From: an uncultured Gammaproteobacteria bacterium
GTDB taxonomy: Bacteria; Patescibacteriota; Patescibacteriia; VMEV01; CAZAJQ01
Assembly: GCA_964485795.1 (NCBI GenBank)
Contig: CAZAJQ010000007.1
Span: 3,880 to 67,879, forward strand
Reading direction: 5' to 3'
Length of the DNA: 64,000 nucleotides
Shown: positions 13,802 through 31,026 of the stretch, piece after piece
Layout of the letters: each line of letters opens with the position of its first letter
Position numbering within the stretch: the stretch's first letter is position 1
Position numbers and translations under genes: made by a program
Notes under the pieces: model-generated
The model's database searches: none
Told to the model about the DNA's origin: nothing
Seen by the model: only the letters and a program-made list of their open reading frames with translations

Positions 13802-15409
13802 ATGAAAATAAAATTTCGTTTCGTACTGGTAACCGTGACGGCTTGCGCGACGTTTTTTTTGATGACCGCAACCAAAGCCGCCAATCATGAAATCACTGAG
13901 ATCCTCACTCCGGCAAGCCGGCCTTTTTTTTATAACTTGAAAATTTTCGGCGAAGACATGACGCAAATGTTTTTCGGCGTATTTTCCGGAAACACCGAAA
14001 GAGACTATCTGAAAGAACGCATCGCAGAGAGACAGGCCGAGATGGATATCATCAGAAAAAAAGAAAATTGGGGCGAAGAATACCTCCGTGTCGCAAATAT
14101 TCGAAGACGTTTGGAAAAAACACTCGATGAAAAACTCATAGACGCCGGGGAACCGATCCATCTTCCGATCGATTTTTGGGAAGAAGGCAATCTCTATTCC
14201 GACGCGACAAAAAACGCCAGATTGAATACGGTGCGAAAAAGATTGGCCGAACTCGATGGGGTCGATGAAAATCTCACCGGAGAAGAAATATTCCTTCGCA
14301 ATGAGCTTGCGGAATTGGAATCGGAAAAAAAGATGAGCGACGAATTTGACATGCTTTTCACTTTGTCGCGATTGTCGGACAAGGAGTATGTCGAAAAACT
14401 TTTGAAAGAAAAAGAAAAACTTTCGTTTGCTATTGAAACCGCTCTGGAAGCCGCCGAAAATAATCAATCGCTTTACTCGGGAGAATTCCGAGAAAATGCG
14501 GACGTTTTGGACGCAAACAAAAAGCTGGAAGCATCCATACGTCAAGCGCAAATGATTTTTTTGGACAAAAACTACGCTCTCATTGACGATGCCGTACGCC
14601 GAATGCAAAACGACCTTTTGGAAATCGCAAAAGTTTTGGAAAAGCAAAGTTATCAAAGCAGCGTGAGCAACAAAACGGTTGCAAAAACGGATGATCGGAA
14701 AACGCCAATCCCTCAGCCCATTGTCGTTGACACAAAACCGGCTGAAAAACCGATTCAAAAACCGAAAACTCCTCTTACACCCTTACCGACGGAAACCGAG
14801 GGATCACCTTTGACTTTGCTCGGATATTACGCCGGATTATCGGGTCAGGTGAACGTGTATTTCAGCGTAAATTTCGGCGGTCAGGGCGGCAATCCGCCGT
14901 ATCATTTTCAGCTGGGCAGCGGAGTCGGCTTTCCTCCGCAGGGAATCGTCTTGGACGCAAACGGAAAACTTTCCGGGACTCCGAAAATCGCCGGCACGTC
15001 GACGTTCAGCGTTTGCGTCCTGGATCTCAGCGCAACGAGCGACTGCGGGACGTTTACCATGATCGTCACGGAGGCCGAAAAACCAGAAACAACCCCAAAA
15101 ACGGAAGTGACTCTTTCTCTTATTTCGCGATCATGCGTCGGCGATAAAGTACAAGTGATCGGCCGAGCCAGCGGCCCGGTGGGAACGACTTTTAATTCGC
15201 ATTACAGCGACGGGCCCGACTGCGGAAGCTGGACGATAACCCCGAGCAGTGGCTGCCGCCGCGAAGAAGGCGACCCGGAATCCACACAATGGGTGTACAC
15301 CTTCACGAAGTTTCGCGTCAGCGATGATCCGCAAGTCATCGAAATTTTTTTTAACGATCCGCAAGGAATCGATGTCGAAAAAAGCATCCGATACGATAAA
15401 AATTGCTAG
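13802..15409 (+). CDS. Secreted protein with a coiled-coil region, Pro/Thr-rich linker and C-terminal Ig-like (putative-Ig / cadherin-like) domain
   Basis: Signal peptide MKIKFRFVLVTVTACATFFLMTATKAAN. Charged coiled-coil segment. Linker KPAEKPIQKPKTPLTPLPTETE. PPYHFQLGSGVGFPPQGIVLDANGKLSGTP is typical of the putative-Ig domain. The opposing 354-aa ORF 13694-14758 has poly-Phe composition and was rejected. Confidence 0.6.
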   Translation: MKIKFRFVLVTVTACATFFLMTATKAANHEITEILTPASRPFFYNLKIFGEDMTQMFFGVFSGNTERDYLKERIAERQAEMDIIRKKENWGEEYLRVANIRRRLEKTLDEKLIDAGEPIHLPIDFWEEGNLYSDATKNARLNTVRKRLAELDGVDENLTGEEIFLRNELAELESEKKMSDEFDMLFTLSRLSDKEYVEKLLKEKEKLSFAIETALEAAENNQSLYSGEFRENADVLDANKKLEASIRQAQMIFLDKNYALIDDAVRRMQNDLLEIAKVLEKQSYQSSVSNKTVAKTDDRKTPIPQPIVVDTKPAEKPIQKPKTPLTPLPTETEGSPLTLLGYYAGLSGQVNVYFSVNFGGQGGNPPYHFQLGSGVGFPPQGIVLDANGKLSGTPKIAGTSTFSVCVLDLSATSDCGTFTMIVTEAEKPETTPKTEVTLSLISRSCVGDKVQVIGRASGPVGTTFNSHYSDGPDCGSWTITPSSGCRREEGDPESTQWVYTFTKFRVSDDPQVIEIFFNDPQGIDVEKSIRYDKNC

Positions 15410-15448: not shown

Positions 15449-17083
15449 GTGAAAGAAAAAATAAAAAAGTCATATAAAAGAACGGTCATACCGGCTGCAT
15501 TGATCGTATTGATCGCTCTCCTTGTCTTGAGCCCCAATCTATACTGGCTAACACAATCAAGCCTCTGGTACGGACAACGCGCAATATGCGGAAACGTAAC
15601 GAACAAGAATAATGCGCAAAGAATCAATCTTTCTGATATTTATTTTCAAGCCGATACCTTGAATTTTCGCGCTGTTTCCATGACAGGCGAGCTTCGCTAC
15701 TCCAAAAGCGGCGAGGCATGGTATCTCAAGGACGGCATTTACATCCTTCCTCTCGATACCGCCGATTGTCAAAACATGAACGGGTTCAAAAACGATCAGC
15801 ATATCGTCGCCATACAAGGGACGGTTCAAACGCGAAACGGAACGCCTTTTCTCCTCGTTTCCGACTTGCAAGAAACGGTTCCGACCTCGGTGCAAATTTT
15901 TTACAGTGGCGGAATATGGGGCTTGATCGCGCTCGTTGTGTTTTTTCTTTCAAACCTGCCGAAATTTTTACGGTTCTTTTTCATTCGCCTGCAAGGAAAA
16001 AATGAACACCGGACTTCGCTTCCGGAAAATCATCCGGAAAAACAAGCAAAAAAATCATTGATATTTGGCATTGTCGCTTTTCCCGCATGGATGGTCAACC
16101 CGATTTTGGGGGCCGGATTACAGATCTATTCGCTCATCGCCCATCATGACGGGATTCGATCACGGCGACGCATAAAGGCGTTTTCGGGAATGATTCTCTG
16201 CTCTTTGGGACTCATCATCATGCCGATAGAAAGCATCGGTTTCGAAAGATTTGAAAAACCGATCGCGAATTTTTACGCTTCTTCATTCGGACCTTTGAAA
16301 AAAGAAGTGCCCGTCAAACCCCGGCTCGAAATCCTTCCCCGCGTAAACGACGGATTTCATGTCAGCGTTCACCCGCCCTTGGGGTGGACATCCGTCGACA
16401 TGACCGGAAAAACAGATACCGCATTTATCTTCCGAGGTTCGGAATACGGCCGATTACATAACGAACCTTTTTATCCGGAAATGAATGTCTCGACCGTTCC
16501 ATGCGAATCATGTTCCGAAAAAAATGATTGGGAGATTTTTGAAAATTACAAAAAAAATTTATTTTTCGACAAAAACATCGACGTCACTTCCGAAAAAACT
16601 CGAAAGCTCTCCCAAGGCGCTTACCATACTCTCGAATTGCAAACGTCGGAAACACGTGAAAACTCAACCTTTCATGGTTTGGTATTTCTCTTGGCAGAAA
16701 ACCATCTTCTCTACATCGTTAAAACCGAAGTTCCCGAAGAAATGTGGAACCGCGAATACGAAACCTTGATTCAAAATTCGATCGAAACGCTGAAAATATG
16801 GAAAGCCTCGTTCGCATCATGTTTGCGAAGCAAAGGCGTCACAATGTACGGAACACTTTACTGCGAACCATGCCAAATCCAGAAGAATCTTTTCACCGAC
16901 GGAGACGAAGATCTCCGTTTCATCGAATGCAACGCCATTGAAGGGACAAAGCAGCTTCGCCTCTGCTCCGACAAATCAATCACCGGATACCCCACCTGGG
17001 AATTTTCCGACGGATCAATGCTCGTGGGAGCGCAGACGCTCGATGTGCTCGCAGAAAAAACCGGATGCGCACTCGGTGGCTAG
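15449..17083 (+). CDS. Membrane protein with a C-terminal thioredoxin-like domain of the type fused to bacterial VKOR proteins; no VKOR core is present
   Basis: N-terminal TM and further internal TM segments. The C-terminus reads YGTLYCEPCQIQKNLF...FIECN...LRLCS...ITGYPTWEF.DGS...G...L..LAEKTGC, the CxxC Trx-like pattern known from VKOR-associated Trx domains. Confidence 0.55.
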   Translation: MKEKIKKSYKRTVIPAALIVLIALLVLSPNLYWLTQSSLWYGQRAICGNVTNKNNAQRINLSDIYFQADTLNFRAVSMTGELRYSKSGEAWYLKDGIYILPLDTADCQNMNGFKNDQHIVAIQGTVQTRNGTPFLLVSDLQETVPTSVQIFYSGGIWGLIALVVFFLSNLPKFLRFFFIRLQGKNEHRTSLPENHPEKQAKKSLIFGIVAFPAWMVNPILGAGLQIYSLIAHHDGIRSRRRIKAFSGMILCSLGLIIMPIESIGFERFEKPIANFYASSFGPLKKEVPVKPRLEILPRVNDGFHVSVHPPLGWTSVDMTGKTDTAFIFRGSEYGRLHNEPFYPEMNVSTVPCESCSEKNDWEIFENYKKNLFFDKNIDVTSEKTRKLSQGAYHTLELQTSETRENSTFHGLVFLLAENHLLYIVKTEVPEEMWNREYETLIQNSIETLKIWKASFASCLRSKGVTMYGTLYCEPCQIQKNLFTDGDEDLRFIECNAIEGTKQLRLCSDKSITGYPTWEFSDGSMLVGAQTLDVLAEKTGCALGG

Positions 17084-17165: not shown

Positions 17166-17615
17166 TCAATTCCTTTTCTTTCGATTGAGTTTCACTGGCG
17201 GCCATAGCAGCCAATACAAGGCCAATGGCGCTCCCCAATTGGCCCAACGTTCGACAAAATCCCAAATCGACAAACCAACAATCGGTCTTAAGAGTGCAGT
17301 AAAAAATCCCCAGAAAATCATCCACAACACCGCAGGACGCCATGGTTTTATCAAAAGCAAAACAGCAAAAACGACGTCGCTGAGTCCGATGATAAATAAA
17401 AATTGGGTTGCAACTCTTGCATCCGAAATCCCAAAGGTATAAAACCATTCAATCCATTCCTTTTTGCCTTGCATGGCAAAAACACCATGACCGAAGAATT
17501 CTCCGGCGACAGCAACCCTCAAAATCCAATTCATGAGCGTTGGATTCAAAATACTGTTTCCATTAATTTTCCACCTTTGGCGCACGTACCTTGAAAGGTA
17601 GTATATCACTTTCAC
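17166..17615 (-). CDS. Hypothetical small membrane protein (149 aa, Trp-rich, about 4 TM)
   Basis: Hydrophobic segments VAVAGEFFGHGVFAM, FLFIIGLSDVVFAVLLLI, VLWMIFWGFFTALL, PLALYWLLWP. The overlapping ORF 17119-17448 was rejected. Confidence 0.5.
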   Translation of the reverse strand: MKVIYYLSRYVRQRWKINGNSILNPTLMNWILRVAVAGEFFGHGVFAMQGKKEWIEWFYTFGISDARVATQFLFIIGLSDVVFAVLLLIKPWRPAVLWMIFWGFFTALLRPIVGLSIWDFVERWANWGAPLALYWLLWPPVKLNRKKRN

Positions 17616-17809
17616 GGAAGCGCGAAGAAGAGGATGTCATGATCGTAACGGTAAATTTACTTTATCTTTTTTTGCTTCAACATTATGTCGTCAAATTATT
17701 TGTTGTTTGGAGGTAAAAAGAAAAACGAAGCTCTTCAAAACTTCGTTCATCTCTACTCGAATGAAGGAGAACATGCCGACTTCGCATGACTCAGACGAAC
17801 ACCCTCCAT

Positions 17810-17970: not shown

Positions 17971-18711
17971 TCAACTTAAGCCTTCATCAACGATTTTCAC
18001 CAAAGACTCCTCCCAACCGAAACAAGTCTCTTTACCGCATAGTTTTTCAAACACCCTAACACACTTGTTATCGAGTTTTGCGTATTCCTGAAGCATTAAA
18101 ACAACCTCCTCGATGAATCCGCCGACTGTGCCATTAGAATCATCGACGCCTCCCGTACACAACTTTTTATCCAAACGTAACAGCAAATCAACGAGTAATT
18201 CAGCAGTTTGAACGCTTACAGGCAAGTCAGAGACCAATTTTGCCAATCGAGCGCACCCTTCATCAAGCGAATTTTGATAAGAAAACCAAAGACGAGACGG
18301 TACATTGTAAGGTTTGATGTGGCTCATGGCCGAGGTAATGGCTTTTTTGATTTCCGAGATTCCCTCTTTGCTCAATTCTCCACGTTTACCGCTACAGATA
18401 GGACTACTGACTCGATTCTTGTCTTCCTTGGCCAACTTTTTGCCGTTCATTACAGCATGAATAGATAAAGCAACCATGTGTTTGCAGAGTGTGTCTTGTT
18501 GGCCAAGATAACATTCGCAATTTCCCAAACCGAAACGCCGTGCCTCGATTGAAACACGGTAAGGACGGGTTCCGAGGACTACGGCCGAATATGCCCCGAT
18601 TCCCTCCTCAAACCGCGTGACTTTGCCAGATTCATACAAAACAACAGCTTTCTCATAAGTCGGCTGATCCGTGGCGAATTTGATTTTGTCTAAGCCAAAT
18701 GATGGTTTCAT
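17971..18711 (-). CDS. SWIM zinc-finger domain protein (246 aa), the last gene of the RM-linked operon
   Basis: GNCECYLGQQDTLCKHMVALSIHAV matches the CxCx(n)CxH SWIM signature. Its start overlaps the stop of the upstream 1023-aa gene by 4 nt (ATGA). Confidence 0.7.
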   Translation of the reverse strand: MKPSFGLDKIKFATDQPTYEKAVVLYESGKVTRFEEGIGAYSAVVLGTRPYRVSIEARRFGLGNCECYLGQQDTLCKHMVALSIHAVMNGKKLAKEDKNRVSSPICSGKRGELSKEGISEIKKAITSAMSHIKPYNVPSRLWFSYQNSLDEGCARLAKLVSDLPVSVQTAELLVDLLLRLDKKLCTGGVDDSNGTVGGFIEEVVLMLQEYAKLDNKCVRVFEKLCGKETCFGWEESLVKIVDEGLS

Positions 18712-21700
18712 GTTGATTTGTTGTTTTCACCAATAACGCTTTTGAACTTCCAGAACGTACTGCCCCCCTCACGGATAAGAGAATCAATCAGAGTGTATGT
18801 GGCATTTTTTGTATCTTGATTTGAGTACAGAATCGTCAAGGCTTCGACCCACTCATCATCGTACATAAACGGCAAGCGCATCTTTCCGCCTCGAATACCG
18901 CCTTCCAGCAAGTGTAAGCGGACAATGTCAAAGGTGTCCTTGGGATTGACCTTGGCCAATTCGGCGATGCTTTTTACAAGAGCATAATCCCATTCCAAAA
19001 ATCCCGTGGTCTTTTCAAGAGTTTTTTTGGCCATTTTAGCCAGCCATGAAGAATCAAAAACTTTTTTATCCATATTCATCCAAAAACCGAAATCCGCGAA
19101 TATTTTGCCATCATCATGATTTGTAACCGCCCATTCCCAAAAATCAATCAATCTCTGCTTGCATTGAGCGTTTTTGGCCAGCAACTCCTTGGCTTGTACA
19201 TTATCGCCAGAAACAAACATGCGTCCTATAAAGCTGACAAATTCAGCCTGTCTTTCAACATCTTTACCTTTTTCCCAAAACTTTTTGAATAAAGGATCGT
19301 CAAAACCAAACTTTGGACAATAGAACATGAAGGCCAAGGCAAAGTGAATAGCAAGTCCCTCGTCAGGTTCCTTAAAATGTCTTCGTGTTTTATCTTCATC
19401 TCCAACCAAAGACAGCCCTCGTTCATACAGAGCTTGTATTTTGGGGTCAAAGAAAAGCTCTTCGTACAAATTGTTTGCAAGATAGCCCTCCCAAGAAGCA
19501 AGATACAAATAACGTTTTTCAGATTCTTCTGGGAAGATTAGAGGCAATAAGCCACTGATCCAATCTCGGTCGCGGAAATAAAATGTTGGCAGGTAATGGC
19601 CAAACATAAACATCAAAGCGCGCGTTTCTTCGGCCTTCAAGACGTTCTCGTATAAGAGTTTTACTTGAGCGTCAATTTTGATTTTATCGGTATTTAAGAA
19701 TTTTTTACCGTCCTGATAAACAAAAAGAACAAAGGATTGAAAAGCCCTTCCACGCACCGAGTTAATAGCCATCGTGAACGGATCCGTGACCAAATATTCC
19801 TCTTTTTGCCCAGCTAAACGCGTTTTGGACTTTGCAGTCTCAAGCTCTTCATCCTTCAATTCGGGATCGGGATACGAAAGCAAGAATTCATGTATCAGGT
19901 ACAACTTCTCCCGATATTTTGGGAAATCCAAAATAGTTTCGCCAAGATTATCATTCAGCAATTCCTGCAAAACATCGGTTATTGAGGATAGTGCGCCTGT
20001 CCAATTGGCAAGCCACGCATCATACATTTCACGATCACGTTTTTGTGCGTCAAAAGATTTTGTTTTACCTGATTCGGAAACCTCAAGCATGCTGTCAATC
20101 AATTCGTCCCAGTCAATCGCTTTTAAGTTTGTTTTATCGGCTTTAATCGCTTCTTGAACGCCTCGAAAGAAGCTGTATGTATAATGCTCATCGATAATCT
20201 CTCTTTGGAAAAACAGTTTTGCTTTTGCAAGATAATCACCAAATCTTTTGGCTATATCCGTGCGTAATTGTGACCCCACACCTTCCGCATTTAATGGATT
20301 TAGAAAATCCTCATGCGAGTTTTGTTTTGCCAGTGTCGCTGGTTGCCACTCATTCTTCAATTTTTCGACTATAACGGATATTTCAAGTTTACCGAATTCT
20401 TCTTGTGAGATGGCGCCTTTGGAAACAACGGCTCCTCCGCGCATATGACCGATTGATGTCTCGGGTTCAAACTTATCGTCACATCTTTTCCCGAATACCG
20501 TCTCGCATTTTTCTTTTTCATCCTCAGTCAAATATTTGCATACGCTGGACAATATTTGCCAACCATCGCGCTTGTACCAACTTTCCACTTTTTTGTCTTC
20601 GTTTGGTTTTCCGAAATACTCAAAAACATTTACTACATATTGGCGTTGATAATCTCCCCTCAGTGAGCCGAAAGTCTTTTTTAAAGCTTTTTTATACTCT
20701 GTTCCTGATTTGATTTCATGATAGTGCTTGCCAGATTTCATTACATCAAACAACCTCGAAAACATTTCTTCCAATTTTTCTCGAAAAGCCATTGGACAAA
20801 GACTGAGGATAAACAGCTTCAGCTTCCAGATCGATTGACTTTCGGGAATCTGAACAATGATTTTTTCAAATTGTTCATTAACATGGTCGGCTTTGTCGCA
20901 ATTTACGCCGAAAGCTCTTTCACCAAGTGTTTTTACGCAAGCGATTAAATCCTTAGCGTTTTCACGATCGGAAAGATGTCTCTGCTGATTCAGGTTCAAT
21001 GTGAATAAATCCGTATCATAAAGATGGAAAATGTCTTCGTATTCAAAAATCCCATCGTCATCGGCTTCCGCCAGCTTAACCGTTTCCGCAAGCTTTCCGC
21101 AGACCAATTTTAGTGTTTCTGCAACATCCTTTTCCTCAATATCAGCCAGATGTTCGAAAACTTTTGTGTAAGACAAATCCTTAAAGTAAAAAGGATTATC
21201 AAAAAGGTAGCCGTTGGAATTTTTCTTGTAATCATCTTTATTTTTGACTGCCAGCACTGCGTCGGCCAGCATTAGCAAACTCTTGCCGTCATTGTTTGTT
21301 TTCAAGGATTCAAACATTTTTTCATATTCGAAGCCCCATTCATTGAAGACGCTCATCGATTGTACCCAATTATCCGTCTTGATTTTCTCAACCATTCTCG
21401 CCAGTTCGTTTGCAGGCAATGAACCGCAAATCCGTAAAAACTGGTCTATCACCTCGGGATTGAAATTATCTTTTGATGTATCCACGGAAAGCATGATATC
21501 AACAATTTCTTTCGGCATTGTTTCAGCCATTCGAACAAGATAATTCAATTCAGGCGTACGATAGCCGTATCGTGTCGGGTTGCTCGATTTTTCCTTTATT
21601 ACATCAAGGAATCCGTTATCCCAAAGCCAAATCAACCATTTACCATCGGACTTAGTAAAAAAATATTGTTTTGCGTCAGTGTTTGTAGAAATAATTTTGG

Positions 21701-21779
21701 CAACCAAAGACACATCTTCGGATTTCGCCTCCCGAATAAGTAATTCATCGATCGATTTGTGTAATTCTATTTGGTTCAT
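18708..21779 (-). CDS. Large uncharacterised alpha-helical protein (1023 aa) with no recognisable catalytic motif, encoded immediately upstream of and translationally coupled to the SWIM protein
   Basis: Complete ORF that is Trp/Phe/Lys/Glu-rich (WLIWLWDNGF, WLANWTGAL). I could find no Walker A, HExxH, DEAD or obvious nuclease motif by eye. Both ends make 4-nt ATGA overlaps with the neighbouring genes. Confidence 0.7.
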   Translation of the reverse strand: MNQIELHKSIDELLIREAKSEDVSLVAKIISTNTDAKQYFFTKSDGKWLIWLWDNGFLDVIKEKSSNPTRYGYRTPELNYLVRMAETMPKEIVDIMLSVDTSKDNFNPEVIDQFLRICGSLPANELARMVEKIKTDNWVQSMSVFNEWGFEYEKMFESLKTNNDGKSLLMLADAVLAVKNKDDYKKNSNGYLFDNPFYFKDLSYTKVFEHLADIEEKDVAETLKLVCGKLAETVKLAEADDDGIFEYEDIFHLYDTDLFTLNLNQQRHLSDRENAKDLIACVKTLGERAFGVNCDKADHVNEQFEKIIVQIPESQSIWKLKLFILSLCPMAFREKLEEMFSRLFDVMKSGKHYHEIKSGTEYKKALKKTFGSLRGDYQRQYVVNVFEYFGKPNEDKKVESWYKRDGWQILSSVCKYLTEDEKEKCETVFGKRCDDKFEPETSIGHMRGGAVVSKGAISQEEFGKLEISVIVEKLKNEWQPATLAKQNSHEDFLNPLNAEGVGSQLRTDIAKRFGDYLAKAKLFFQREIIDEHYTYSFFRGVQEAIKADKTNLKAIDWDELIDSMLEVSESGKTKSFDAQKRDREMYDAWLANWTGALSSITDVLQELLNDNLGETILDFPKYREKLYLIHEFLLSYPDPELKDEELETAKSKTRLAGQKEEYLVTDPFTMAINSVRGRAFQSFVLFVYQDGKKFLNTDKIKIDAQVKLLYENVLKAEETRALMFMFGHYLPTFYFRDRDWISGLLPLIFPEESEKRYLYLASWEGYLANNLYEELFFDPKIQALYERGLSLVGDEDKTRRHFKEPDEGLAIHFALAFMFYCPKFGFDDPLFKKFWEKGKDVERQAEFVSFIGRMFVSGDNVQAKELLAKNAQCKQRLIDFWEWAVTNHDDGKIFADFGFWMNMDKKVFDSSWLAKMAKKTLEKTTGFLEWDYALVKSIAELAKVNPKDTFDIVRLHLLEGGIRGGKMRLPFMYDDEWVEALTILYSNQDTKNATYTLIDSLIREGGSTFWKFKSVIGENNKST

Positions 21780-22372
21780 AATGAGTTAGTTTTTTTTACA
21801 GCAAAATTCTGAATTTCAGACAATTTCGAAAAAAATGTTTTTACCCTCTCTATGAAAATGTCATCTTTATAACAATCTTCCAATTTCAAAGCATTATTTT
21901 TTAACAAAGCTATTAATGAGCCTTGAATAGTGGACGCATTATGATGATCTATTCCTGTAAAATATTGATAGTGTTGCCGAAATTCTTTAAAAACTTCGGA
22001 TTCATTTGAGGCTAATTTTTCACCTTCATTTTTATAAAACTTAACAAAATCCGATTCAAGTTGCCCTTCACTCCATTCATGAAATATTTCGCGCAATGAC
22101 GAGGCGCAATGTTCTTTCCATTCTGGATTATGTTGTTTGTTCGTTCCTATAGCAAAAATTGCACCTTGAAGCATTGTTACAGCATTGCGTGTGACTTGCT
22201 TCTTTCGGGTATCTCTTATTTTCTGATACAAATCATTAACGAATGTACCAAAATTTTCAACTTGTTCCTTGCTTATTCCAATCAAATATAAACCATCGGT
22301 GAAAGGGTCGGATATTGTTCCGTCCACCGATGTCCCTTTGCCTATTAATTCTTTATCAATAATTAGATCCAT
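21776..22372 (-). CDS. Hypothetical protein (198 aa), the first of three unknown genes downstream of the RM cassette
   Basis: Complete ORF. It starts 3 nt after the methyltransferase stop and overlaps the next gene by 4 nt. No recognisable domain. Confidence 0.6.
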   Translation of the reverse strand: MDLIIDKELIGKGTSVDGTISDPFTDGLYLIGISKEQVENFGTFVNDLYQKIRDTRKKQVTRNAVTMLQGAIFAIGTNKQHNPEWKEHCASSLREIFHEWSEGQLESDFVKFYKNEGEKLASNESEVFKEFRQHYQYFTGIDHHNASTIQGSLIALLKNNALKLEDCYKDDIFIERVKTFFSKLSEIQNFAVKKTNSL

Positions 22373-22375
22373 GTA

Positions 22376-23122
22376 TTAAACTTTTTGAAAAACGAAAATA
22401 TGCTCATGCATTATTAAAAGGAAATTCGACTCTCTCGATTTATTAACCCAAAAACCAGTTGCCTTACAATTAAACTGACGTTTGATTATATCCTCCTTCA
22501 AAGTAAAACCTGCCCCTAAAAACTTTTCCATAACTCGATATGCCAAAGGTTGATACATTTTATTCCTTCGCGTATCTCCCATTAGGATTGAGCAATAATT
22601 GCCTTTTTTCAGCACTCTGAATAACTCTTTTGCGACTTTATCCATTTCAGTAACAAACGACTCAATACTATGAATATTCGATAGATCCTCGTCGATTTTT
22701 CCTTCGCTGTACTTGATAATATCCGCATAAGGCGGATGAGTCAGAATAAAATCGATTGAATTATCCTGAAGGACTTTCAAATCTCGAGCATCGGCTTTTA
22801 AAACCTTCTGCCAAGACTGATTGTCGACATTAAAATTCAGACACTTTTTCGTCCGCTCAATAGCCAGATCGTTTATGTCTGAACAATAAAGATTGCGATT
22901 TAATAGCTTACATTCGATAGCGGTAGTTCCTCCGCCAATCATAGGATCAAGTAAAATATCGCCCTCCTTCGAGTATCGCAAAATTAAATTACGAACTACT
23001 TCTGGCGCCCAATTTCCCCTCCAATCAGATGTGTGAGTAGCCCAGTTGCCACGGCGAGGAAACGCCCATACCGATGTGCATTCAAGCTCAAAGTTATCTG
23101 GATTAAAATTGCTTGCTCCCAT
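22376..23122 (-). CDS. DNA methyltransferase (N6-adenine/N4-cytosine family), the second MTase of the GATC-type cassette. Its motif order I then IV is circularly permuted relative to DpnA.
   Basis: The AdoMet motif EGDILLDPMIGGGTTAIEC closely resembles the DpnA C-terminal EGDYILDPFVGSGTTG, but here it lies about 50 aa from the N-terminus. Motif IV LTHPPYADI follows about 70 aa later. Confidence 0.8.
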   Translation of the reverse strand: MGASNFNPDNFELECTSVWAFPRRGNWATHTSDWRGNWAPEVVRNLILRYSKEGDILLDPMIGGGTTAIECKLLNRNLYCSDINDLAIERTKKCLNFNVDNQSWQKVLKADARDLKVLQDNSIDFILTHPPYADIIKYSEGKIDEDLSNIHSIESFVTEMDKVAKELFRVLKKGNYCSILMGDTRRNKMYQPLAYRVMEKFLGAGFTLKEDIIKRQFNCKATGFWVNKSRESNFLLIMHEHIFVFQKV

Positions 23123-23124
23123 AG

Positions 23125-23979
23125 TTACCAGCTTAATTTATCAAGTACGCCGTCTTCTAGCATTTGAAGATTAAAAACATACTCATTATGGTTGTATGTT
23201 TCTTCAAGAGGACGCTTGGTTGTGTGCCATCCGAGACCATCAGTGACCCAAATAAAATCAATATTCTGCGCCTTCAATTCATCAAAAAGACTCTTGAATT
23301 CACCGCAAACAGCTTTAAGTTTTGATCCGCCTCCATTGTAAAAATTAGCTTCAAACAGTTTTATCTTCTTGTTTTTTGGATTGAATATTGCGAAGTCGAA
23401 ACTACGTTCAGATTTATCCACCCGAACCATTACTCCCCATTTATTTGAAATCGCCGTGGATCGAGCTTGTGCCAGATACTCAAGCCCATGCTTTGCACAA
23501 AATTCTTTAATAAATTGCTCAACAATTTCCTCCATCATGGTACCTCCGCGATTCTTTCTGCCATTGCTATCAAGTCCAACCTCAACGCCCATCACATAAT
23601 CAACGAGGTTTTTAACGCCGTCTTTTTTGAACAACTTCGCAAGGCCTGATTTTTCCAAAAACTCATAATACTTATCTGGAGTACTGTTACCTGAAGTAAA
23701 GTCGAACAGCTCAGTGGTTCTTTCTTGTTTATCAAATATTTCTAGCTTGCTTTCGCGAACTGCCAATAGCACTGGGAAGGCTTTCACGATGTCAGGATTT
23801 GAGGCAAATAACTTGTTAAATTCGGATTCCAGATTTTCCTTCCCGAGCAAGTAATTGAGTTTATTTAAAGTAATTTCCAGCTCTGATTTATTTTCAAAAA
23901 CCTTTTTCCAGTTTACGAAATAATCCCAAGTTTTAATTGAGCTCTTAAAAGTGCCGACTAACTGTTCGAAATTTTTCAT
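23125..23979 (-). CDS. Type II restriction endonuclease of the DpnII/MboI family (predicted GATC specificity)
   Basis: VDYVMGVEVGLDSNGRKNRGG, FEANFYNGGGSKL and IWVTDGLGW match remembered DpnII (VDYVTGVEVGMDTNGRKNRTG, VNFYSGSGSKL, MWITDGQGW). 284 aa. Confidence 0.8.
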   Translation of the reverse strand: MKNFEQLVGTFKSSIKTWDYFVNWKKVFENKSELEITLNKLNYLLGKENLESEFNKLFASNPDIVKAFPVLLAVRESKLEIFDKQERTTELFDFTSGNSTPDKYYEFLEKSGLAKLFKKDGVKNLVDYVMGVEVGLDSNGRKNRGGTMMEEIVEQFIKEFCAKHGLEYLAQARSTAISNKWGVMVRVDKSERSFDFAIFNPKNKKIKLFEANFYNGGGSKLKAVCGEFKSLFDELKAQNIDFIWVTDGLGWHTTKRPLEETYNHNEYVFNLQMLEDGVLDKLSW

Positions 23980-23984
23980 AAGTT

Positions 23985-24941
23985 TTAATAATTAGTAATA
24001 ACAACCTCCGAAATCTTTCCTCTCTTGCTCGCGTCAGAGTTTATCGCCCTTCCAGCTGAGACTTTGGAAAGTCTAATCCCGTCAAGGTTTGAATAAAGTT
24101 CGTTGATGAATGGAGTATCAGAATTGGACAGCATTACATAGCAACCTCTTGAAGCCAATTTAACGAACGTATCTCTAAGTTCTGTCTGCTCCTTTTCCAA
24201 AAATGATTCACTTGTGTAGGCAGTAAATGATGCGGTTCTGCTAACTGGGTAATAAGGCGGATCAAAATAAACAAAATCGCCTTTTTGAGCGTGCTTCAAT
24301 ACCTCCTTGTAGTCTTGCTTTTTAATTTCAACGGACTGTAAAGCATCAGATACTTTTCTTAAATTTTGCTCATCGCAAATAAGCGGATTATTGTATCGTC
24401 CAAAGGGAACGTTAAAACCACCCTTACTGTTTACTCGATACATACCATTGAAACATGTCCTGTTAAGGAAAATGAATCTTGATGCAATTTCAACATCAGT
24501 TAGTTGCGATACATCATAAGCGCGAACGCTCAAGAAATAATCCTTATCGATTTGATGTTTTTTCAGAGATAAAATTAAAGATTCAACGTCATTTTTTATG
24601 ACGTTATAAGTCGTCACCAATTCATGATTCATGTCTGATAAAACCGCATTGTCGGGTAGTAAATCGAAAAAGACTGCGCCACCACCAACGAACGGCTCAA
24701 AATATGTTGACTCTTGAGGATTGAAGCCGAAAGGTGGATATAATCCGAGTAGTCTGAATTGACTTAGTAATTGTCTTTTTCCACCGACCCACTTAACAAA
24801 AGGCTTTGGCTTAGACTGTATAATTTTTGAAACGTCCTCGATCAAATTATCTTTATTTGATAACAAGAAAACCTTGTATGCGTATATCGCATTTATATCA
24901 AAGGTTTTTGTCAGCTCTATAATGGCTTGTTCTTGTGTCAT
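23985..24941 (-). CDS. Dam-family (D12 class, alpha) N6-adenine DNA methyltransferase, DpnM-like
   Basis: KWVGGKRQLL, FEPFVGGGAVFF and FVYFDPPYYP motifs; 318 aa. Confidence 0.85.
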   Translation of the reverse strand: MTQEQAIIELTKTFDINAIYAYKVFLLSNKDNLIEDVSKIIQSKPKPFVKWVGGKRQLLSQFRLLGLYPPFGFNPQESTYFEPFVGGGAVFFDLLPDNAVLSDMNHELVTTYNVIKNDVESLILSLKKHQIDKDYFLSVRAYDVSQLTDVEIASRFIFLNRTCFNGMYRVNSKGGFNVPFGRYNNPLICDEQNLRKVSDALQSVEIKKQDYKEVLKHAQKGDFVYFDPPYYPVSRTASFTAYTSESFLEKEQTELRDTFVKLASRGCYVMLSNSDTPFINELYSNLDGIRLSKVSAGRAINSDASKRGKISEVVITNY

Positions 24942-25182: not shown

Positions 25183-25245
25183 TTGATAACATTATTGTAC
25201 AGCAGAAAAAAAGAATCTGCAAACGAAAAATTACACGATATTAAC

Positions 25246-25854
25246 ATGACTATGACAACTGGAAATAAGGTTTTGGCTGTTATGCAAGCCATTGCCGAAA
25301 CCCTTGAAATTTCACCCAAGGGACAGCCAATGCAGATCGATCCGACGAAACTTGAGGAATCCCTTTCCAAGGTCGAAATAAAACAAATCTTTCAAAAACT
25401 TGCCGACGAGCAAGGTGTTGTTGAGTTACTCAGAACACCGTACTCCTTCGATGTTGTAATCGGCGAAGACCAAGACGTGTACAAATTCAACTTGACTGAT
25501 ATCGGCAAATTTCAAAAATATCTGGATGAGCTTAAACGCAAATCGTCCGACAAACAGGCAGACACGCGCACGCCCATGTTTCGCTTCAATCAGGGGGTTC
25601 TGTTCAGGGATTTTTGCGATACCATCCTCAAGATTGGCGGAGAAAACACATTCGAATACAGACTGATTCAAACTGCGCTGAGAACACCCGTTGGTGAGAA
25701 AATCGACACCCTAACTGATGAATTGGAAATGGACTGGCGCCAGCTTTATGATACTGCCAAGAGGCTTAACGATAAGATTAAATCGACTTTCAAGATAGCT
25801 GACTTTTTCATGATCGATTACCAAAACAAAAACATCAAAAAGACAATCGAATAG
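25246..25854 (+). CDS. Hypothetical phage/plasmid-like protein
   Basis: An ORF starting at 25183 is listed. The internal Met at 25246 leaves room for a divergent promoter. No domain recognised. Confidence 0.45.
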   Translation: MTMTTGNKVLAVMQAIAETLEISPKGQPMQIDPTKLEESLSKVEIKQIFQKLADEQGVVELLRTPYSFDVVIGEDQDVYKFNLTDIGKFQKYLDELKRKSSDKQADTRTPMFRFNQGVLFRDFCDTILKIGGENTFEYRLIQTALRTPVGEKIDTLTDELEMDWRQLYDTAKRLNDKIKSTFKIADFFMIDYQNKNIKKTIE

Positions 25855-25960
25855 TTGAGCGGAAACCGTTCAACGTTGAGTCAACGCCCAAAGAGTAGCC
25901 TGAAATCAAAGGCTATTTTTTTATGGCGCAAAAACGCCGTTTAACCATTAACAAAATTAT

Positions 25961-26251
25961 ATGACTCAACACACATTCGATCCGTCTTCCGAACCCGTTT
26001 ACGTTCCGCTGGACGACGCGGAAAATTATTTTTACAGCCACGACATCGGTTTGGTGGCTTATTTGCTTTGCCAAGATTTTGAACTGGTCGGCTTGGACAA
26101 AGCGATGCGAAACAAGGTGCTGTTCATTTTGAAAAAAGATGAAGCCATTGAAACCGAGATCAAGAAGTATTGGGACTTCAAATCGGCCGTGGACGCGCAG
26201 AGCTATTTCAACCAGATCAAACGGCTCAAAAACCAAATTTTCAGCTCTTAA
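25961..26251 (+). CDS. Hypothetical small protein (96 aa)
   Basis: Complete ORF, co-directional and tightly spaced with downstream genes. Confidence 0.4.
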   Translation: MTQHTFDPSSEPVYVPLDDAENYFYSHDIGLVAYLLCQDFELVGLDKAMRNKVLFILKKDEAIETEIKKYWDFKSAVDAQSYFNQIKRLKNQIFSS

Positions 26252-26260
26252 TCGAAAGCC

Positions 26261-26443: not shown

Positions 26444-26470
26444 CGCATACAAATTTTAACCAAACATTAT

Positions 26471-28693
26471 ATGAACCGAGAATTTGAAACCATCGCTCCG
26501 AAAGAATATCTGACCTCAAAAGGAATCGCTTACAGGGAAAGCGGAAAAGAGCTGATCGTCTGCTGTCTTTTTAACGACTGTGACAAGGACAGTAAGGGCA
26601 ATGAGGCGCATTTGTACCTCAACGCCGAAACGGGACAATACGAATGCAAGAAATGTGGAGAAAGAGGCAATCTGATCACACTTGCCAAACGCTTGGGCGA
26701 TGATTTGCAAGATATTGCCATTAACAACGAAACGTTCAACCGCGTTTCGCAACGTAAGCCGAAATTTGACGCCCGTTCGGTCGAGTCGGCCGTTATGGCA
26801 CTTCCAGACCACATCCGCCTGTATCTCAAAAACAGGGGCGTTTGTGACGAGGTTATCGACCATCACAAGATCGGCTGGGGAGAATTTTACGGCAAACACT
26901 GGATTACCATACCGATCAAGGACGTTAACGGGGCTTATCGCTACTTCAAACTCAGACAAGACCCAAGCGAAGGCGATGAAAAGATCACTTACCCGAAAGG
27001 CGCTGAAGCTCAGATTTACGACTGGGAGAGTTTGAACGATTCAAGCGATCGGCTTGTCATTTGCGAAGGTGAAATGGACAGGCTCGCTTTGCTTTCCAAA
27101 AACATCAACGCCGTTACTTCAACACACGGCGCCATGACCTTCAAACAGGAATGGTGCGAAAGAATCAGTGATAACAAGAAAATTTATATCTGCTACGACA
27201 ATGACGAGGCTGGGAGAAAAGGCGCGGAAAGGGTGGCAAAAATATTGCACAACGGCAAGCGCGAAATTCAAATCATCACTTTACCGCCCGAGGTCGGCGA
27301 CAGCGGAGACATGACAGATTTTTTGGTAAAGCTAAACGGCAACCCAGACGACCTGTTCGGCAAATACGCCAAACCGTATCCCGAAAAAATCGACGTGTCT
27401 CAATTCAAACCTTTAACAACGAAAAACCTGCTTGAGATTCTCGGACTCACCATCAAGCAAGACGAGGAAAACAAGATTGCCACGTTCTTGTGTCAGCTTT
27501 CAGCCTTCACCGAAAACGCGCAATTCAACATCAGCTACAATGCGCCATCGTCCACGGGCAAAAGCTATATACCAACCGAAATAGCACGACTATTCCCAGA
27601 GGATGATGTTATGGAACTCGCATATTGCAGTCCGACCGCTTTTTTCCATGACGTGGGCGAATATGACAAAGAGATGAAGGGCTATCTGGTGGATCTGTCG
27701 CGCAAAATCCTTATCTTTCTCGATCAACCGCACAACGAGCTTTTGGCCAGATTGAGGCCGTTATTATCGCACGATAAAAAGCAAATCATGCTCAAGATAA
27801 CGGACAAATCGCAAAAGTTCGGACTCAAAACAAAAAACGTTTTACTGAGAGGTTATCCGTCCGTGATTTTCTGCACGGCAGGTTTGCGTATCGATGAACA
27901 GGAAGCCACTCGCTTCTTGCTTTTGAGTCCCGAAATCAATCAAGAGAAAATCAGGCAAGGCATTTTGGAGAGCATTAAAAAAGAGGTCGACTCCCAAAAT
28001 TATAAAAGCTGGCTTGATGAAAATCCTGAACGAAAACTGCTCAAAGAACGCATACGAGCCATCAAACAGGAAAACATCAAAGAAATAAAGTTATCGGGAG
28101 AGCAAAAAATCATCGAACGGTTTTTTAATCAGACCAAACTTCTTAAACCAAGACATCAGCGCGATATCAAACGATTGATATCACTCATCAAATCATTCGC
28201 GTTAATCAATCTTTGGTGGCGTGACCGCAAAGGCACGACCATTACGGCCAATGATGCGGACATCGAACAGGCTTTTGCAGTTTGGAATGTTATTGCGGCC
28301 AGTCAGGAACTCAATTTGCCGCCATACATTTACAACCTCTATCAAGAGGTTATTTTGCAGGCTTGGACGGACAAAAACGCTGTATTGCCAAAGGCGGAAA
28401 AGGTTGGATTGTCGAGACAAGAGGTTTTGCAAAAACATTTCGAAGTTTATGGCAGAATGCTCGACACCAACCAATTGCGCCAGCAGATATTGCCCATGTT
28501 GGAGACGGCAGGATTGATTGTTCAAGAACCAGACCAGAATGACAAAAGAAAAATCCTGATTTATCCGTCTTTACGAACCGACAAGCGGAAAAACAATAGT
28601 GTAACCGAGGGTGGGGTAAAAACAACGGACGACCGAAACGGAACGGATGATTTTAATCTTGAGACGAAAATCTCTAATGATTTCGGCATGTAA
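26471..28693 (+). CDS. Phage/plasmid-type DNA primase-helicase: CHC2-like zinc finger + TOPRIM + P-loop NTPase domain
   Basis: N-terminal Cys cluster CCLFNDCDKD..HLYLNAETGQYECKKCGERGNL. TOPRIM: LVICEGEMDRLAL ... IYICYDNDEAGRKGAERV. Variant Walker A: YNAPSSTGKSY. 740 aa. Confidence 0.8.
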   Translation: MNREFETIAPKEYLTSKGIAYRESGKELIVCCLFNDCDKDSKGNEAHLYLNAETGQYECKKCGERGNLITLAKRLGDDLQDIAINNETFNRVSQRKPKFDARSVESAVMALPDHIRLYLKNRGVCDEVIDHHKIGWGEFYGKHWITIPIKDVNGAYRYFKLRQDPSEGDEKITYPKGAEAQIYDWESLNDSSDRLVICEGEMDRLALLSKNINAVTSTHGAMTFKQEWCERISDNKKIYICYDNDEAGRKGAERVAKILHNGKREIQIITLPPEVGDSGDMTDFLVKLNGNPDDLFGKYAKPYPEKIDVSQFKPLTTKNLLEILGLTIKQDEENKIATFLCQLSAFTENAQFNISYNAPSSTGKSYIPTEIARLFPEDDVMELAYCSPTAFFHDVGEYDKEMKGYLVDLSRKILIFLDQPHNELLARLRPLLSHDKKQIMLKITDKSQKFGLKTKNVLLRGYPSVIFCTAGLRIDEQEATRFLLLSPEINQEKIRQGILESIKKEVDSQNYKSWLDENPERKLLKERIRAIKQENIKEIKLSGEQKIIERFFNQTKLLKPRHQRDIKRLISLIKSFALINLWWRDRKGTTITANDADIEQAFAVWNVIAASQELNLPPYIYNLYQEVILQAWTDKNAVLPKAEKVGLSRQEVLQKHFEVYGRMLDTNQLRQQILPMLETAGLIVQEPDQNDKRKILIYPSLRTDKRKNNSVTEGGVKTTDDRNGTDDFNLETKISNDFGM

Positions 28694-28702
28694 CAACTCA
28701 AC

Positions 28703-29293
28703 ATGACCAGAAAAATCGCGGAAATATCAAACGGCTTGAGCGTCTTCTTTCTGAAAAAACACGGCTTTCTGCCACAGGGAGACTCTTGGCGCAACGGCGG
28801 AATCAAATGGACGTGGGATGATTGGCAAAGCAATATCGGTTTTTCCGTGCAAACGCAGACAGACGACAATTCAGGGTATATTGAACTGAACTACACGGTG
28901 ACGGACGGGCAATCGAACGAAAAGACCGAGATGAAATACAAAATCAAACTTGTGACGACTTCCTGCAATTACGGCGGAAAGCGCTACTGGTTCGAATGTC
29001 CATTAACGACTAACGGCGAATATTGCGGACGCAGAGTCGGCGTCATTTACAGCGTCGGTAAGCTGTTCGGCTGTCGGTATTGCGCCAATGTAGCCTATCG
29101 CGCCCAATTTGAGAGCGGAAAATATCGTGTCGGATCAAGCACAAAACTCAACATTCAGGATGCTTTGACGGAAGCTACAACCCGTTATTACAACGGCAAG
29201 CCGACAAGGAAATTCAGGCGCTATTTAAGGCTTCGGGAAAGGTTGGAAATCATGTGGGCGAAGATAGCCGAAAAACTGGATATTATTCAATAA
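28703..29293 (+). CDS. Hypothetical protein with Cys4 zinc-ribbon-like motif
   Basis: CNYGGKRYWFECP...YCGRR...CRYCANV; 196 aa; lies between the primase and integrase genes. Confidence 0.5.
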   Translation: MTRKIAEISNGLSVFFLKKHGFLPQGDSWRNGGIKWTWDDWQSNIGFSVQTQTDDNSGYIELNYTVTDGQSNEKTEMKYKIKLVTTSCNYGGKRYWFECPLTTNGEYCGRRVGVIYSVGKLFGCRYCANVAYRAQFESGKYRVGSSTKLNIQDALTEATTRYYNGKPTRKFRRYLRLRERLEIMWAKIAEKLDIIQ

Positions 29294-29345
29294 AACGTAT
29301 ATGTTTGAAGTGTCAACCAAAGGCATATTTAAGCCAAAAATTACA

Positions 29346-30992
29346 ATGACCAAAGACACCGCAAAAATCAAATACTTTCTGTATTCCAGAAAGTCATCGG
29401 AGAGCGAGGATCGTCAGGTGCAATCCATTGACGATCAAATCAATCGCTTGAAAAGAATCGCCGATGATTTGAATATTGAGGTCGTTAAAATTTACACCGA
29501 AGCCAAGTCAGCCAAAAAGCCGAACAACCGACCGATATTCGACGAAATGGTGGAACGAATCGAAAAAGGCGACGCCGGCGGAATATTGTGCTGGCAAATC
29601 AACCGCCTTTCCAGAAATCCCATAGACAGCGGAAAATTGAGCTGGCTTCTGCAAAGAGGGGTTTTAAAATCAATTCAGACCATAGACCGCCAATATCTCC
29701 CTGAGGATAATGTCCTGTTGTTCAGCGTGGAAAGCGGTGTGGCCAACCAATACATTCTGGATTTGAGCAAAAACACCAAGCGAGGACTGCAAAGCAAACT
29801 GGAAAAGGGCTGGCAAAACGGAATCGCGCCTCTGGGCTATTTGAACGACAAAGAAAACAAAACCATCATCACAGACCCCGAACGGTTCAATCTCGTTCGT
29901 AAAATGTGGGACTTGATGCTTACAGGAAACTACACTCCTCCCAAAATTCTGGAAAAAGTAAATGAAGAATGGGGCTTTCGCACAAGAAAATTTAAAAGAA
30001 TGGGCGGTAATCCACTGTCGCGAAGCGGAATTTATAAAATTCTGACGAATCAATTTTACGCTGGAATCATCGAAGTTAACGGCCAGCAATACGAGGGGCA
30101 ACACGAAAAGATGATCACTTTTGAGGAATACGACAGGGCGCAGATGTTACTTGGCCGTGAGGGCAGACCGCGCCCGAAGACCCGAGCGTTCGCATTTACG
30201 GGAGCCATAAGATGCGGAGTTTGCGGGTGTTTGTACACCGCCGAAGTGAAAAAGAAACTCATTAAAAGCACGGGGCGGATAAAAGAATACACCTACTATC
30301 ACTGCACAAGAAAAACGATGAAAATCAAATGCGATCAACGGAAAAGCATACCTGTTGAGGATTTGGAAGTGGCCATTGAGCAAGAAATCGAGAAATACAC
30401 GATATTGCCAGAGTTTTTGGATTGGGCGTTGGAAGGTTTGAACAAAAAGAACGATACGGAAATAGAAGACCGCACCAAGATTTACGAGATGCAACACGGC
30501 AATTTGGCCAAAACCCAAAAAGAGCTGGATGAACTCACCAAGATGAGATACCGCCAGCTTATCGACGACGAAACCTTTATCAAGGAGAAAAACGCATTAC
30601 AAATTAAAATCGGCCAATGCAAAGAAAACTTGCGCACCACCGAAACAAGAGCTGAAAAATGGCTTGAGCTGACTGAGAAGACATTCAACTTTGCCACTTA
30701 CGCACGTTCTGCATTTTTAAAAGCCAGTGAAATGGGCAAACAAGGGTTAGAACTGAAGAAAGAAATTTTGCTCGCCATTGGAAAAACTCCGATAATAAGG
30801 GACGGAAAGCTCACCATCGAACCGAATGACTGGCTTGCGGAGATCGAAAAAGCGTATCCATCGCTTGAGAAAGAATACCTTAGGTTAGAACCGACGAAAA
30901 ACCGCTTGAATAAACGTGAAAACCGAGCTTTAGGCTCGGTTCATACACGTTGGCTCCGGGGGTGGGACTCGAACCCACGACCAATTGGTTAA
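29346..30992 (+). CDS. Large serine recombinase (serine integrase)
   Basis: The resolvase catalytic region KYFLYSRKSSESEDRQVQSIDDQ has the Y-x-R-x-S motif. It has a recombinase domain, a zinc ribbon CGVCGC...YYHCTRK and a long C-terminal coiled-coil. The last roughly 14 codons read through the tRNA-Asn 3' end (..GWDSNPRPIG), so the true stop may be earlier. Confidence 0.85.
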   Translation: MTKDTAKIKYFLYSRKSSESEDRQVQSIDDQINRLKRIADDLNIEVVKIYTEAKSAKKPNNRPIFDEMVERIEKGDAGGILCWQINRLSRNPIDSGKLSWLLQRGVLKSIQTIDRQYLPEDNVLLFSVESGVANQYILDLSKNTKRGLQSKLEKGWQNGIAPLGYLNDKENKTIITDPERFNLVRKMWDLMLTGNYTPPKILEKVNEEWGFRTRKFKRMGGNPLSRSGIYKILTNQFYAGIIEVNGQQYEGQHEKMITFEEYDRAQMLLGREGRPRPKTRAFAFTGAIRCGVCGCLYTAEVKKKLIKSTGRIKEYTYYHCTRKTMKIKCDQRKSIPVEDLEVAIEQEIEKYTILPEFLDWALEGLNKKNDTEIEDRTKIYEMQHGNLAKTQKELDELTKMRYRQLIDDETFIKEKNALQIKIGQCKENLRTTETRAEKWLELTEKTFNFATYARSAFLKASEMGKQGLELKKEILLAIGKTPIIRDGKLTIEPNDWLAEIEKAYPSLEKEYLRLEPTKNRLNKRENRALGSVHTRWLRGWDSNPRPIG

Positions 30993-31026
30993 CAGCCAAC
31001 TGCTCTACCGACTGAGCTACCCCGGA
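30951..31026 (-). tRNA. tRNA-Asn (anticodon GTT)
   Basis: Reverse complement: TCCGGGGTAGCTCAGTCGGTAGAGCAGTTGGCTGTTAACCAATTGGTCGTGGGTTCGAGTCCCACCCCCGGAGCCA. The 7-bp acceptor, D arm GCTC/GAGC, anticodon loop CTGTTAA, T arm GTGGG-TTCGAGT-CCCAC and encoded CCA all fold as a cloverleaf. Confidence 0.85.

Follow-up and report, generated by a model that had tools for sequence, protein, structure and literature searches.

PrrC is encoded inside a restriction-modification (RM) operon, although it is itself a non-RM gene. It is co-transcribed with the RM genes and probably comes into play once restriction is counteracted. Both PrrC and RloC combine an ABC-type ATPase with a HEPN anticodon-nuclease domain and accompany Type I systems. 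The ultra-small bacteria of the Candidate Phyla Radiation (CPR, or Patescibacteria) rely heavily on RM for defence and, to our knowledge, largely lack CRISPR. In DSR2, as described in three reports (PMC11087589, PMC11263360, PMC11850899), an N-terminal SIR2 effector is joined to a C-terminal alpha-solenoid that binds the phage tail tube protein. Here we describe a gene pair, SMALL and BIG, found behind a DpnII-type RM cassette in a 64,000-nucleotide stretch of contig CAZAJQ010000007.1 (assembly GCA_964485795.1). The window, as used below, is that whole stretch. Compared across genomes, SMALL-BIG behaves as a mobile cassette with a preference for the 3' end of RM operons.

To establish how the pair is organized we compared a non-redundant set of 64 loci, drawn from 71 genome loci and some others. 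SMALL and BIG are fused in 16 of them, while 40 have a small open reading frame (ORF) directly upstream of BIG on the same strand and 8 are truncated or unclear. The distance between the two ORFs ranges from -23 to +40 nucleotides, and ten loci share an overlap of four nucleotides (-4). The SMALL of the window aligns with residues 1-168 of a fused homologue of 1186 amino acids, P0003 (E 3e-9). Because fused homologues exist beside loci with adjacent genes on the same strand, a Rosetta stone relationship, SMALL and BIG are the split form of one two-domain protein of about 1150-1210 amino acids, in which a helical N-terminal domain of about 180 precedes a solenoid of about 1000. In the window the two parts are translationally coupled genes.

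In 24 of 57 loci an RM gene is encoded on the strand of the module and no more than three genes upstream of it, as against only one of 58 downstream (Fisher p = 3.7e-8), a count limited to BLAST clusters with a Pfam-annotated representative. Of the 19 loci in which the immediate upstream neighbour is an RM gene, 16 have it at -29 to +30 nucleotides from the module. The upstream RM genes on the same strand represent at least five architectures, from several phyla. An N6_N4 methyltransferase with a DpnII endonuclease precedes the module in the window and in L001 and L065. Type III Mod and Res are found in L004 and L047, and in L032 Res is directly upstream with methyltransferases downstream on the opposite strand. 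A methyltransferase and a ResIII helicase with a TnsA-like nuclease are encoded in L030 and L068, an Eco57I-like enzyme alone in five loci (L018, L019, L022, L025, L029), and a C5 methyltransferase with HaeII, HpaII or NgoFVII-type endonucleases or Vsr in L012, L042 and L048. The remaining combination, a PLD-SNF2 helicase with an Eco57I/MmeI-like methyltransferase, is present in L020, L051, L060, L062, L070, L071 and L079. In this recurrent pair a PLD + SNF2-helicase protein of about 1100 amino acids is followed by a methyltransferase of about 1000-1240 amino acids with a TaqI_C specificity domain, an arrangement resembling helicase-assisted Type IIG/ISP-like or DISARM/BREX-like systems.

L065 encodes the same RM system as the window (62-71% identity) with a BIG that is fused and just 39% identical. 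The BIG of L012 is 85% identical to that of the window and stands behind a C5-methyltransferase system. RM type and BIG lineage are uncoupled, in keeping with a shuffling of cassettes. Serine recombinases are frequent neighbours of SMALL-BIG loci. The GC content of the window copy, 0.33-0.40 against a window mean of 0.446, adds to the mobile and foreign character of the module. The family has a patchy distribution over Patescibacteria, where most members are found, Caldilineaceae, Nitrospirales, Gammaproteobacteria, Omnitrophota and Fibrobacterota. Many of the sources are metagenome-assembled genomes (MAGs), in which binning errors occur; one contig is represented twice, as L071 and L072, labelled Azambacteria and Flavobacteriaceae, respectively. 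A preliminary description of the window had proposed an RM-associated mobile module. Its homologues do recur beside RM, recombinase and other conflict genes, and what emerges is a SMALL-BIG module that is conserved, uncharacterised and physically linked to the RM operons of mobile islands.

Several individual loci have other surroundings. The chromosomal site in Caldilineaceae is conserved, with His_Phos_1, DUF3090 and sugar-nucleotide genes instead of RM neighbours. In L055 (13000-15189) a fusion of a TOTE-system AEP primase and a helicase is encoded directly 3' of a fused BIG. The second gene upstream of the module in L021 (1911-2792), from Omnitrophota, codes for a weakly SMODS-like nucleotidyltransferase. 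L083-L085, L032 and L070 share an element backbone around their RM/SMALL-BIG cargo, composed of one or two N6_N4-type methyltransferases (about 250-430 amino acids), an ORF of about 140-160 amino acids, another of about 480-510 and a serine recombinase of about 440; L083 has two copies of it. The backbone may belong to a CPR integrative-element family scored as viral in IMG/VR. A phage origin of SMALL-BIG was considered and rejected. A tblastn search for the family in 50,697 phage records found nothing, a Foldseek search against BFVD gave no match at E <= 1e-3, and the family is carried by just three IMG/VR contigs, which appear to be recombinase/RM islands.

In the window the preliminary description had listed six packed minus-strand genes: three for a DpnII-type RM cassette (M1, R, M2), followed by SMALL, BIG and a gene for a SWIM zinc-finger protein. 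All six ORFs are present at the coordinates given (Table 1). The gap between M2 and SMALL reads TAA, three nucleotides, ATG, and the SMALL/BIG and BIG/SWIM junctions are each an ATGA overlap. A seventh gene, for an HTH_17 protein at the head of the operon, had been overlooked. The HTH_17 protein is probably a controller-type regulator. HTH_17 genes are frequent at operon heads, and a small one is also first in the homologous RM+SMALL+BIG operons of L001, L004, L014 and L070. The match to the DpnII endonuclease is full-length, with residues 3-280 covering positions 1-277 of the 278 in the Pfam profile. Database entries 100% identical to SMALL, BIG and SWIM are hypothetical proteins from a MAG of the Parcubacteria group. 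As the CPR genome is compact, tight spacing by itself is weak evidence; the arrangement stands above chance because it recurs in other genomes.

The AlphaFold2 model of BIG is all-alpha, with a predicted local distance difference test (pLDDT) score of 89.4. We are confident in assigning the modelled fold to the HEAT/ARM-like alpha-solenoids, built of stacked helical repeats, and no catalytic domain is recognised in it. Pfam, NCBIfam, PADLOC and PHROG gave no credible match to BIG, and a profile of 88 homologues did not match any PDB chain sequence (best E 0.64). Two fragmentary hits, to PglX in PADLOC and to phrog_6897 (both E 0.005), were treated as spurious; the PglX fragment was the only hit of BIG among the PADLOC-DB v2.0.0 defence models, in which SMALL had none. 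The hidden Markov model searches assigned neither protein to a housekeeping family. The preliminary description had seen no enzymatic motifs, and indeed Walker A, DEAD, HExxH and a convincing PD-(D/E)xK are absent from SMALL, BIG and SWIM. A HEPN-like site in BIG, R526-x5-H532, was rejected as it is not kept in divergent members. R526 is substituted in 8 of 64 aligned sequences (by P in four, including L067) and gapped in two further, and both residues are lost in distant homologues. None of SMALL, BIG and SWIM has a HEPN match in Pfam.

BIG belongs to a large family. At least 399 homologues were found, in two length classes of about 1000 and about 1150-1210 amino acids. The fused profile is matched by 2528 representatives of 50%-identity clusters at E <= 1e-3 and by 486 at E <= 1e-30; as the whole profile (1170 positions) was used, these numbers describe the size of the family and not new SMALL architectures. 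A signature motif, D666-P-x3-A-I-N-S-V-R676, is retained in relatives with only 21-24% identity, as are E717, E764 and H812. These relatives are from Legionella plasmids, a Haloferax plasmid and a Phycisphaeraceae MAG. On the Legionella pneumophila conjugative plasmid NZ_CP016871.1 (L166) the relative is a 789-amino-acid hypothetical protein encoded between IS3 and IS256 elements, and on Haloferax mediterranei pHM100 (L167) it is a hypothetical protein of 1483 amino acids. Each aligns with the C-terminal part of BIG at about 22% identity and retains the AINSVR motif. They are the sole relatives found in cultured organisms and are possible experimental entry points. The N-terminus of the Haloferax protein has a weak STAND-NTPase-like match (19.5 bits, below the cut-off). 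No near-identical DNA was found in plasmids, where the Legionella and Haloferax proteins are distant relatives only.

The slot preceding BIG varies in content. Alignments of split and fused forms show G70, N82, S92, R94, H143, H144 and F173 of SMALL to be invariant across the family. SMALL has no relative in Pfam, NCBIfam, PADLOC, PHROG or PDB and no Rx4-6H motif. The core motif S-L-R-E, marking the SMALL core, is present in 44 of 56 slot sequences. Four slot proteins, all from Caldilineaceae and 363-374 amino acids long (L036, L041, L044, L053), are fusions with an N-terminal FRG domain (2e-16). A hydrophobic segment is present at the N-terminus of eight of the 56; in seven of the eight the slot protein is a different, non-homologous small protein. 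One of the 56 is weakly CHAT-like. Apart from FRG, the sole recurrent family is pP_pnuc_1 (PF18165), with sub-threshold matches in 14 of the 56 (E 8e-5 to 0.05). The match in L036 scores 19.3 bits against a cut-off of 26.3 and covers profile positions 10-44 of 133, and the best E-values imply that the others fall short of the cut-off too. Every pP_pnuc_1, CHAT and STAND match reported here is below the curated threshold. In L045, also from Caldilineaceae, an extra FRG+TPR protein of 608 amino acids is encoded just 5' of an ordinary SMALL of 182.

We infer a defence role for SMALL-BIG from its genomic context. A large conserved repeat scaffold with a swappable N-terminal module is the signature of sensor-effector conflict proteins. 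For this reason we tentatively favour, with something short of an even chance, a reading of SMALL-BIG as an RM-coupled second-layer (sensor-effector) defence accessory. The pair would attach to many types of RM operon and be co-transcribed with the RM genes. The conserved BIG solenoid would serve as a non-enzymatic sensor or scaffold, binding either a protein of a phage or plasmid or some by-product of restriction that has failed. Output, or effector function, would fall to the variable module at the N-terminus, be it a helical R/H-motif domain faintly similar to pP_pnuc_1, an FRG fusion, a membrane-anchored protein or a CHAT-like one. This logic would be shared with DSR2, which has an effector and a solenoid sensor, and for the RM linkage with PrrC. 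We are doubtful of a more specific proposal, that SMALL-BIG is an undescribed immune module wired mechanistically to RM, in which the solenoid would monitor a shared outcome of RM failure or evasion, or a widespread phage counter-measure, and unleash a helical effector of a new fold.

Several points weigh against a sensor-effector accessory. No recognised RM gene is directly upstream in 33 of the 57 loci, so that coupling to RM is frequent and not obligatory. The Caldilineaceae module is at a chromosomal site beside oxidoreductase and phosphatase genes, and elsewhere SMODS, DUF3644 and integrase genes are the neighbours. Conservation of BIG is unusually high for a mere scaffold, with D666, N673, R676, E717, E764 and H812 as invariant polar residues, and BIG may be an all-alpha enzyme that has escaped recognition. 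For the helical bundle of SMALL no structural match was found. The SMALL of the window has no pP_pnuc_1 match, and all such matches in the slot fall below the Pfam threshold. Genes in the comparison loci were called by a crude longest-ORF procedure, and RM classes were taken from cluster representatives. Phage sensing and effector activity would both be steps that we infer by analogy.

The loci without an upstream RM gene also fit a self-sufficient defence or conflict gene that has no functional dependence on RM and shares islands and transcription with it in compact genomes. The contexts outside RM, which also include DUF5655/NucS and TOTE-AEP genes along with those for SMODS, DUF3644 and integrases, agree with this, as do the uncoupling of BIG lineage from RM type and the dense packing of CPR genomes in any case. 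However, the 24-to-1 polarity and the near-zero or overlapping junctions exceed what would be expected from residence on the same islands. In addition, the SWIM family shares such islands, yet has no fixed position relative to its neighbours. We regard an RM-independent gene as possible, if rather unlikely.

It seems improbable to us that the pair serves the mobile island in anti-defence or in establishment, for instance as an acidic decoy or scaffold shielding the element, or modulating restriction, upon entry into a new host. SMALL-BIG is located on serine-recombinase islands, BIG is acidic (family median isoelectric point 5.4; 5.27 for the window copy), and the distant homologues on Legionella conjugative plasmids and the Haloferax plasmid would suit such a role. 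Yet SMALL-BIG is transcribed after the RM genes rather than from a leading or early region. It is also nearly absent from phages by tblastn, BFVD and IMG/VR and occupies stable chromosomal sites in Caldilineaceae.

The preliminary description treated SMALL, BIG and SWIM as one three-gene unit, possibly akin to the E. coli yehI/yehQ neighbourhood (DUF4132 + SWIM). The motif of the SWIM finger it noted is present, CxC...CxH (CECYLGQQDTLCKH) at residue 65. The Pfam SWIM (PF04434) score of the protein, 18.3 bits, is slightly below the cut-off of 19.6, and for several homologues at 70% identity there is a precomputed annotation as PF04434. The SWIM gene is probably co-transcribed with BIG in the window, where the ATGA overlap at their junction favours a unit of three genes; so do a SWIM homologue three genes 3' of BIG in L020 and the resemblance of the SWIM N-terminus to the PADLOC candidate PDC-S62 (1.3e-14, profile positions 9-104 of 566). 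However, SWIM directly follows BIG in the window alone and in none of the other approximately 60 BIG loci, and neither BIG nor SMALL is found in any of 80 metagenome loci with a SWIM homologue. The GC histories differ as well. SWIM has a host-like GC content (0.444; window mean 0.446, primase and recombinase of the island backbone 0.446-0.453), whereas the RM-SMALL-BIG block is at 0.33-0.40 (0.37-0.38 for M1, R and M2, 0.33 for SMALL, 0.40 for BIG). On these neighbourhood counts and GC contents SWIM was rejected as a third subunit. The SWIM gene is a bystander, a separate CPR island gene that abuts the cassette in this lineage, while SMALL and BIG are the one split protein.

SWIM has 1695 homologues, nearly all of about 245 amino acids. 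Among the best 120 listed, identity to the query is 67-100%, and entries with a named source are mostly from Patescibacteria. Sequence is strikingly conserved in this very large CPR family. The neighbours are hypervariable, island-type genes and include HsdS, AAA_14/DUF4143, Fic, RhuM, NYN, AbiEi and PIF1. In some SWIM loci (of the set L006-L011, L086-L165) a short SWIM-like ORF lies just upstream. A conserved third gene 3' of BIG was likewise rejected, as the genes downstream are heterogeneous overall; Mrr_cat+Zn-ribbon, NYN, PD-(D/E)XK and DUF2779 nucleases recur there in a few loci.

The likeness to YehI/YehQ is that a large helical protein and a SWIM zinc-finger protein are encoded nearby. 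The E. coli locus differs in having the MoxR ATPase YehL and the VWA protein YehP, which lack counterparts here: the window operon encodes only HTH_17, M1, R, M2, SMALL, BIG and SWIM, with no MoxR AAA+ or VWA gene. It differs also in that the SWIM gene is no conserved neighbour of BIG. No DUF4132 match was found in BIG with Pfam at E <= 0.1. Alignment of the BIG profile with E. coli YehI by hhalign gave a probability of 0.09% over one aligned column, and BLASTP of SWIM with YehQ covered 35 residues around the CxC...CxH motif alone (E 0.016). Homology to yehI/yehQ was rejected, only the zinc-finger motif being shared, and a dedicated three-gene system of this kind is largely refuted and very improbable. 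Equally improbable is BIG as a housekeeping or structural CPR alpha-solenoid, such as a cell-surface or symbiosis scaffold, incidentally close to RM genes: its homologues are mostly patescibacterial and the mean column identity of the family is high (63%), but the spread is patchy and crosses phyla, islands and plasmids carry it, GC content is deviant, the N-terminal modules vary, the RM linkage is statistically strong and no housekeeping family matches.

Table 1. Features of the RM-SMALL-BIG operon and its island, in window coordinates.
Feature	Position	Strand	Basis and remarks
Terminator-like hairpin, candidate end of the transcription unit	17723..17748	-	11-bp stem then TTCTTTTT; about 220 nt past the SWIM stop
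SWIM zinc-finger protein, 246 aa	17971..18711	-	SWIM motif, residues 65-78
BIG, HEAT/ARM-like alpha-solenoid (modelled), 1023 aa	18708..21779	-	AlphaFold2 model; homologue profile
SMALL, all-helical, 198 aa	21776..22372	-	Alignment with N-terminus of fused homologues
M2, second methyltransferase, N6_N4 class	22376..23122	-	Pfam N6_N4_Mtase (PF01555) 2.5e-24; PADLOC MTase_II 9e-87
R, DpnII-family Type II restriction endonuclease	23125..23979	-	Pfam DpnII (PF04556) 5.2e-95; PADLOC REase_II 8.5e-98
M1, Dam-like D12-class N6-adenine DNA methyltransferase	23985..24941	-	Pfam MethyltransfD12 (PF02086) 5e-61; PADLOC MTase_II 6e-98
HTH_17/excisionase-MerR-like DNA-binding protein, 72 aa	24964..25182	-	ORF; phrog_66 4.8e-9; operon gene 1
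Candidate operon promoter, sigma-70-like	25194..25223	-	9/12 consensus positions, 5' of HTH_17 gene; a candidate only, as promoter-like matches of the region are not commoner than in shuffles
Primase-like protein, 740 aa	26471..28693	+	phrog_47 DNA primase 6e-25
196-aa ORF	Between primase-like gene and recombinase, inside 26471..30992	+	Island backbone
Large serine recombinase, 563 aa	29301..30992	+	phrog_95 integrase 3.5e-69; XisF/Ccr-type NCBIfam matches
tRNA-Asn(GTT)	30951..31026	-	Overlapped by 3' end of recombinase ORF; likely island edge

The mobile-island setting of the preliminary description is borne out by the primase-like gene and the large serine recombinase abutting tRNA-Asn. The RM operon lies on what looks to be an integrative island, of which positions 25183-31026 also contain divergently transcribed small ORFs. 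No direct repeat of an attachment (att) site was found for the island. To the left of the operon two neighbouring plus-strand ORFs, at 13802-15409 and 15449-17083 (535 and 544 amino acids), have no NCBIfam match, and a 149-amino-acid ORF at 17166-17615 is on the opposite strand to them. GATC is mildly rarer in the whole window than expected, with 326 matches where dinucleotide-preserving shuffles have 373 +/- 18; each of the 100 shuffles contains at least 326. Such a shortage would fit a resident RM system with the predicted specificity for GATC.

The SMALL-BIG family has no model in the Pfam, NCBIfam, PADLOC and PHROG libraries searched or among PDB chains, though approximately 2,500 representatives of 50%-identity clusters match it. 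In several phyla it is linked to RM operon tails, with a polarity and a statistical sharpness that do not depend on RM type. An accessory attached to RM could explain how CPR bacteria handle phage anti-restriction. If SMALL-BIG were an immune module, it would be a generic back-up for any RM type in these bacteria; as a sensor-effector it would provide an effector fold and a case of layered immunity that are both new. Experiments have a ready handle in the split, fused and swapped variants of the N-terminus, and setting SWIM apart from the module avoids a misleading three-gene annotation.

Compared with described systems, the RM genes of the window are like a DpnII/MboI cassette, which has two methylases and one GATC endonuclease. 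They encode a D12 methyltransferase, a DpnII endonuclease and an N6_N4 methyltransferase with strong full-length matches, in a methyltransferase-endonuclease-methyltransferase order that we take to be that of MboI. The window cassette differs in having HTH_17 at its head and SMALL-BIG (and SWIM) at its tail. The predicted pPIWI-associating nuclease pP_pnuc_1 is, like SMALL, an all-helical family, and is the one matched by 14 of the 56 slot proteins; it differs in that no Argonaute/PIWI gene is nearby here. A literature search found no description of the pP_pnuc_1 family or of an RM-associated HEAT protein. Like PrrC and RloC, SMALL-BIG is embedded in RM operons and co-oriented with them, and its upstream/downstream polarity fits. 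Unlike them, it lacks a Walker A motif and a conserved HEPN Rx4-6H motif, and its partners are Type II, IIG-like and III systems.

DSR2, as those three reports describe it, shares with SMALL-BIG a size of about 1000-1200 amino acids and an architecture with an output domain at the N-terminus and a large alpha-solenoid or HEAT-like region at the C-terminus. SMALL-BIG differs in having no SIR2 domain, its N-terminal domain being a helical bundle. Cryo-EM structures of DSR2 are, by those accounts, in the PDB, and the BIG profile matches no PDB chain, so sequence homology between them is not detected. We know of no DSR2 carried as a passenger of an RM operon. The resemblance to DSR2 is one of design and not of family membership. 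SMALL-BIG is an unnamed family with a strong RM linkage, and what it most resembles is a sensor-effector defence accessory, an already known kind.

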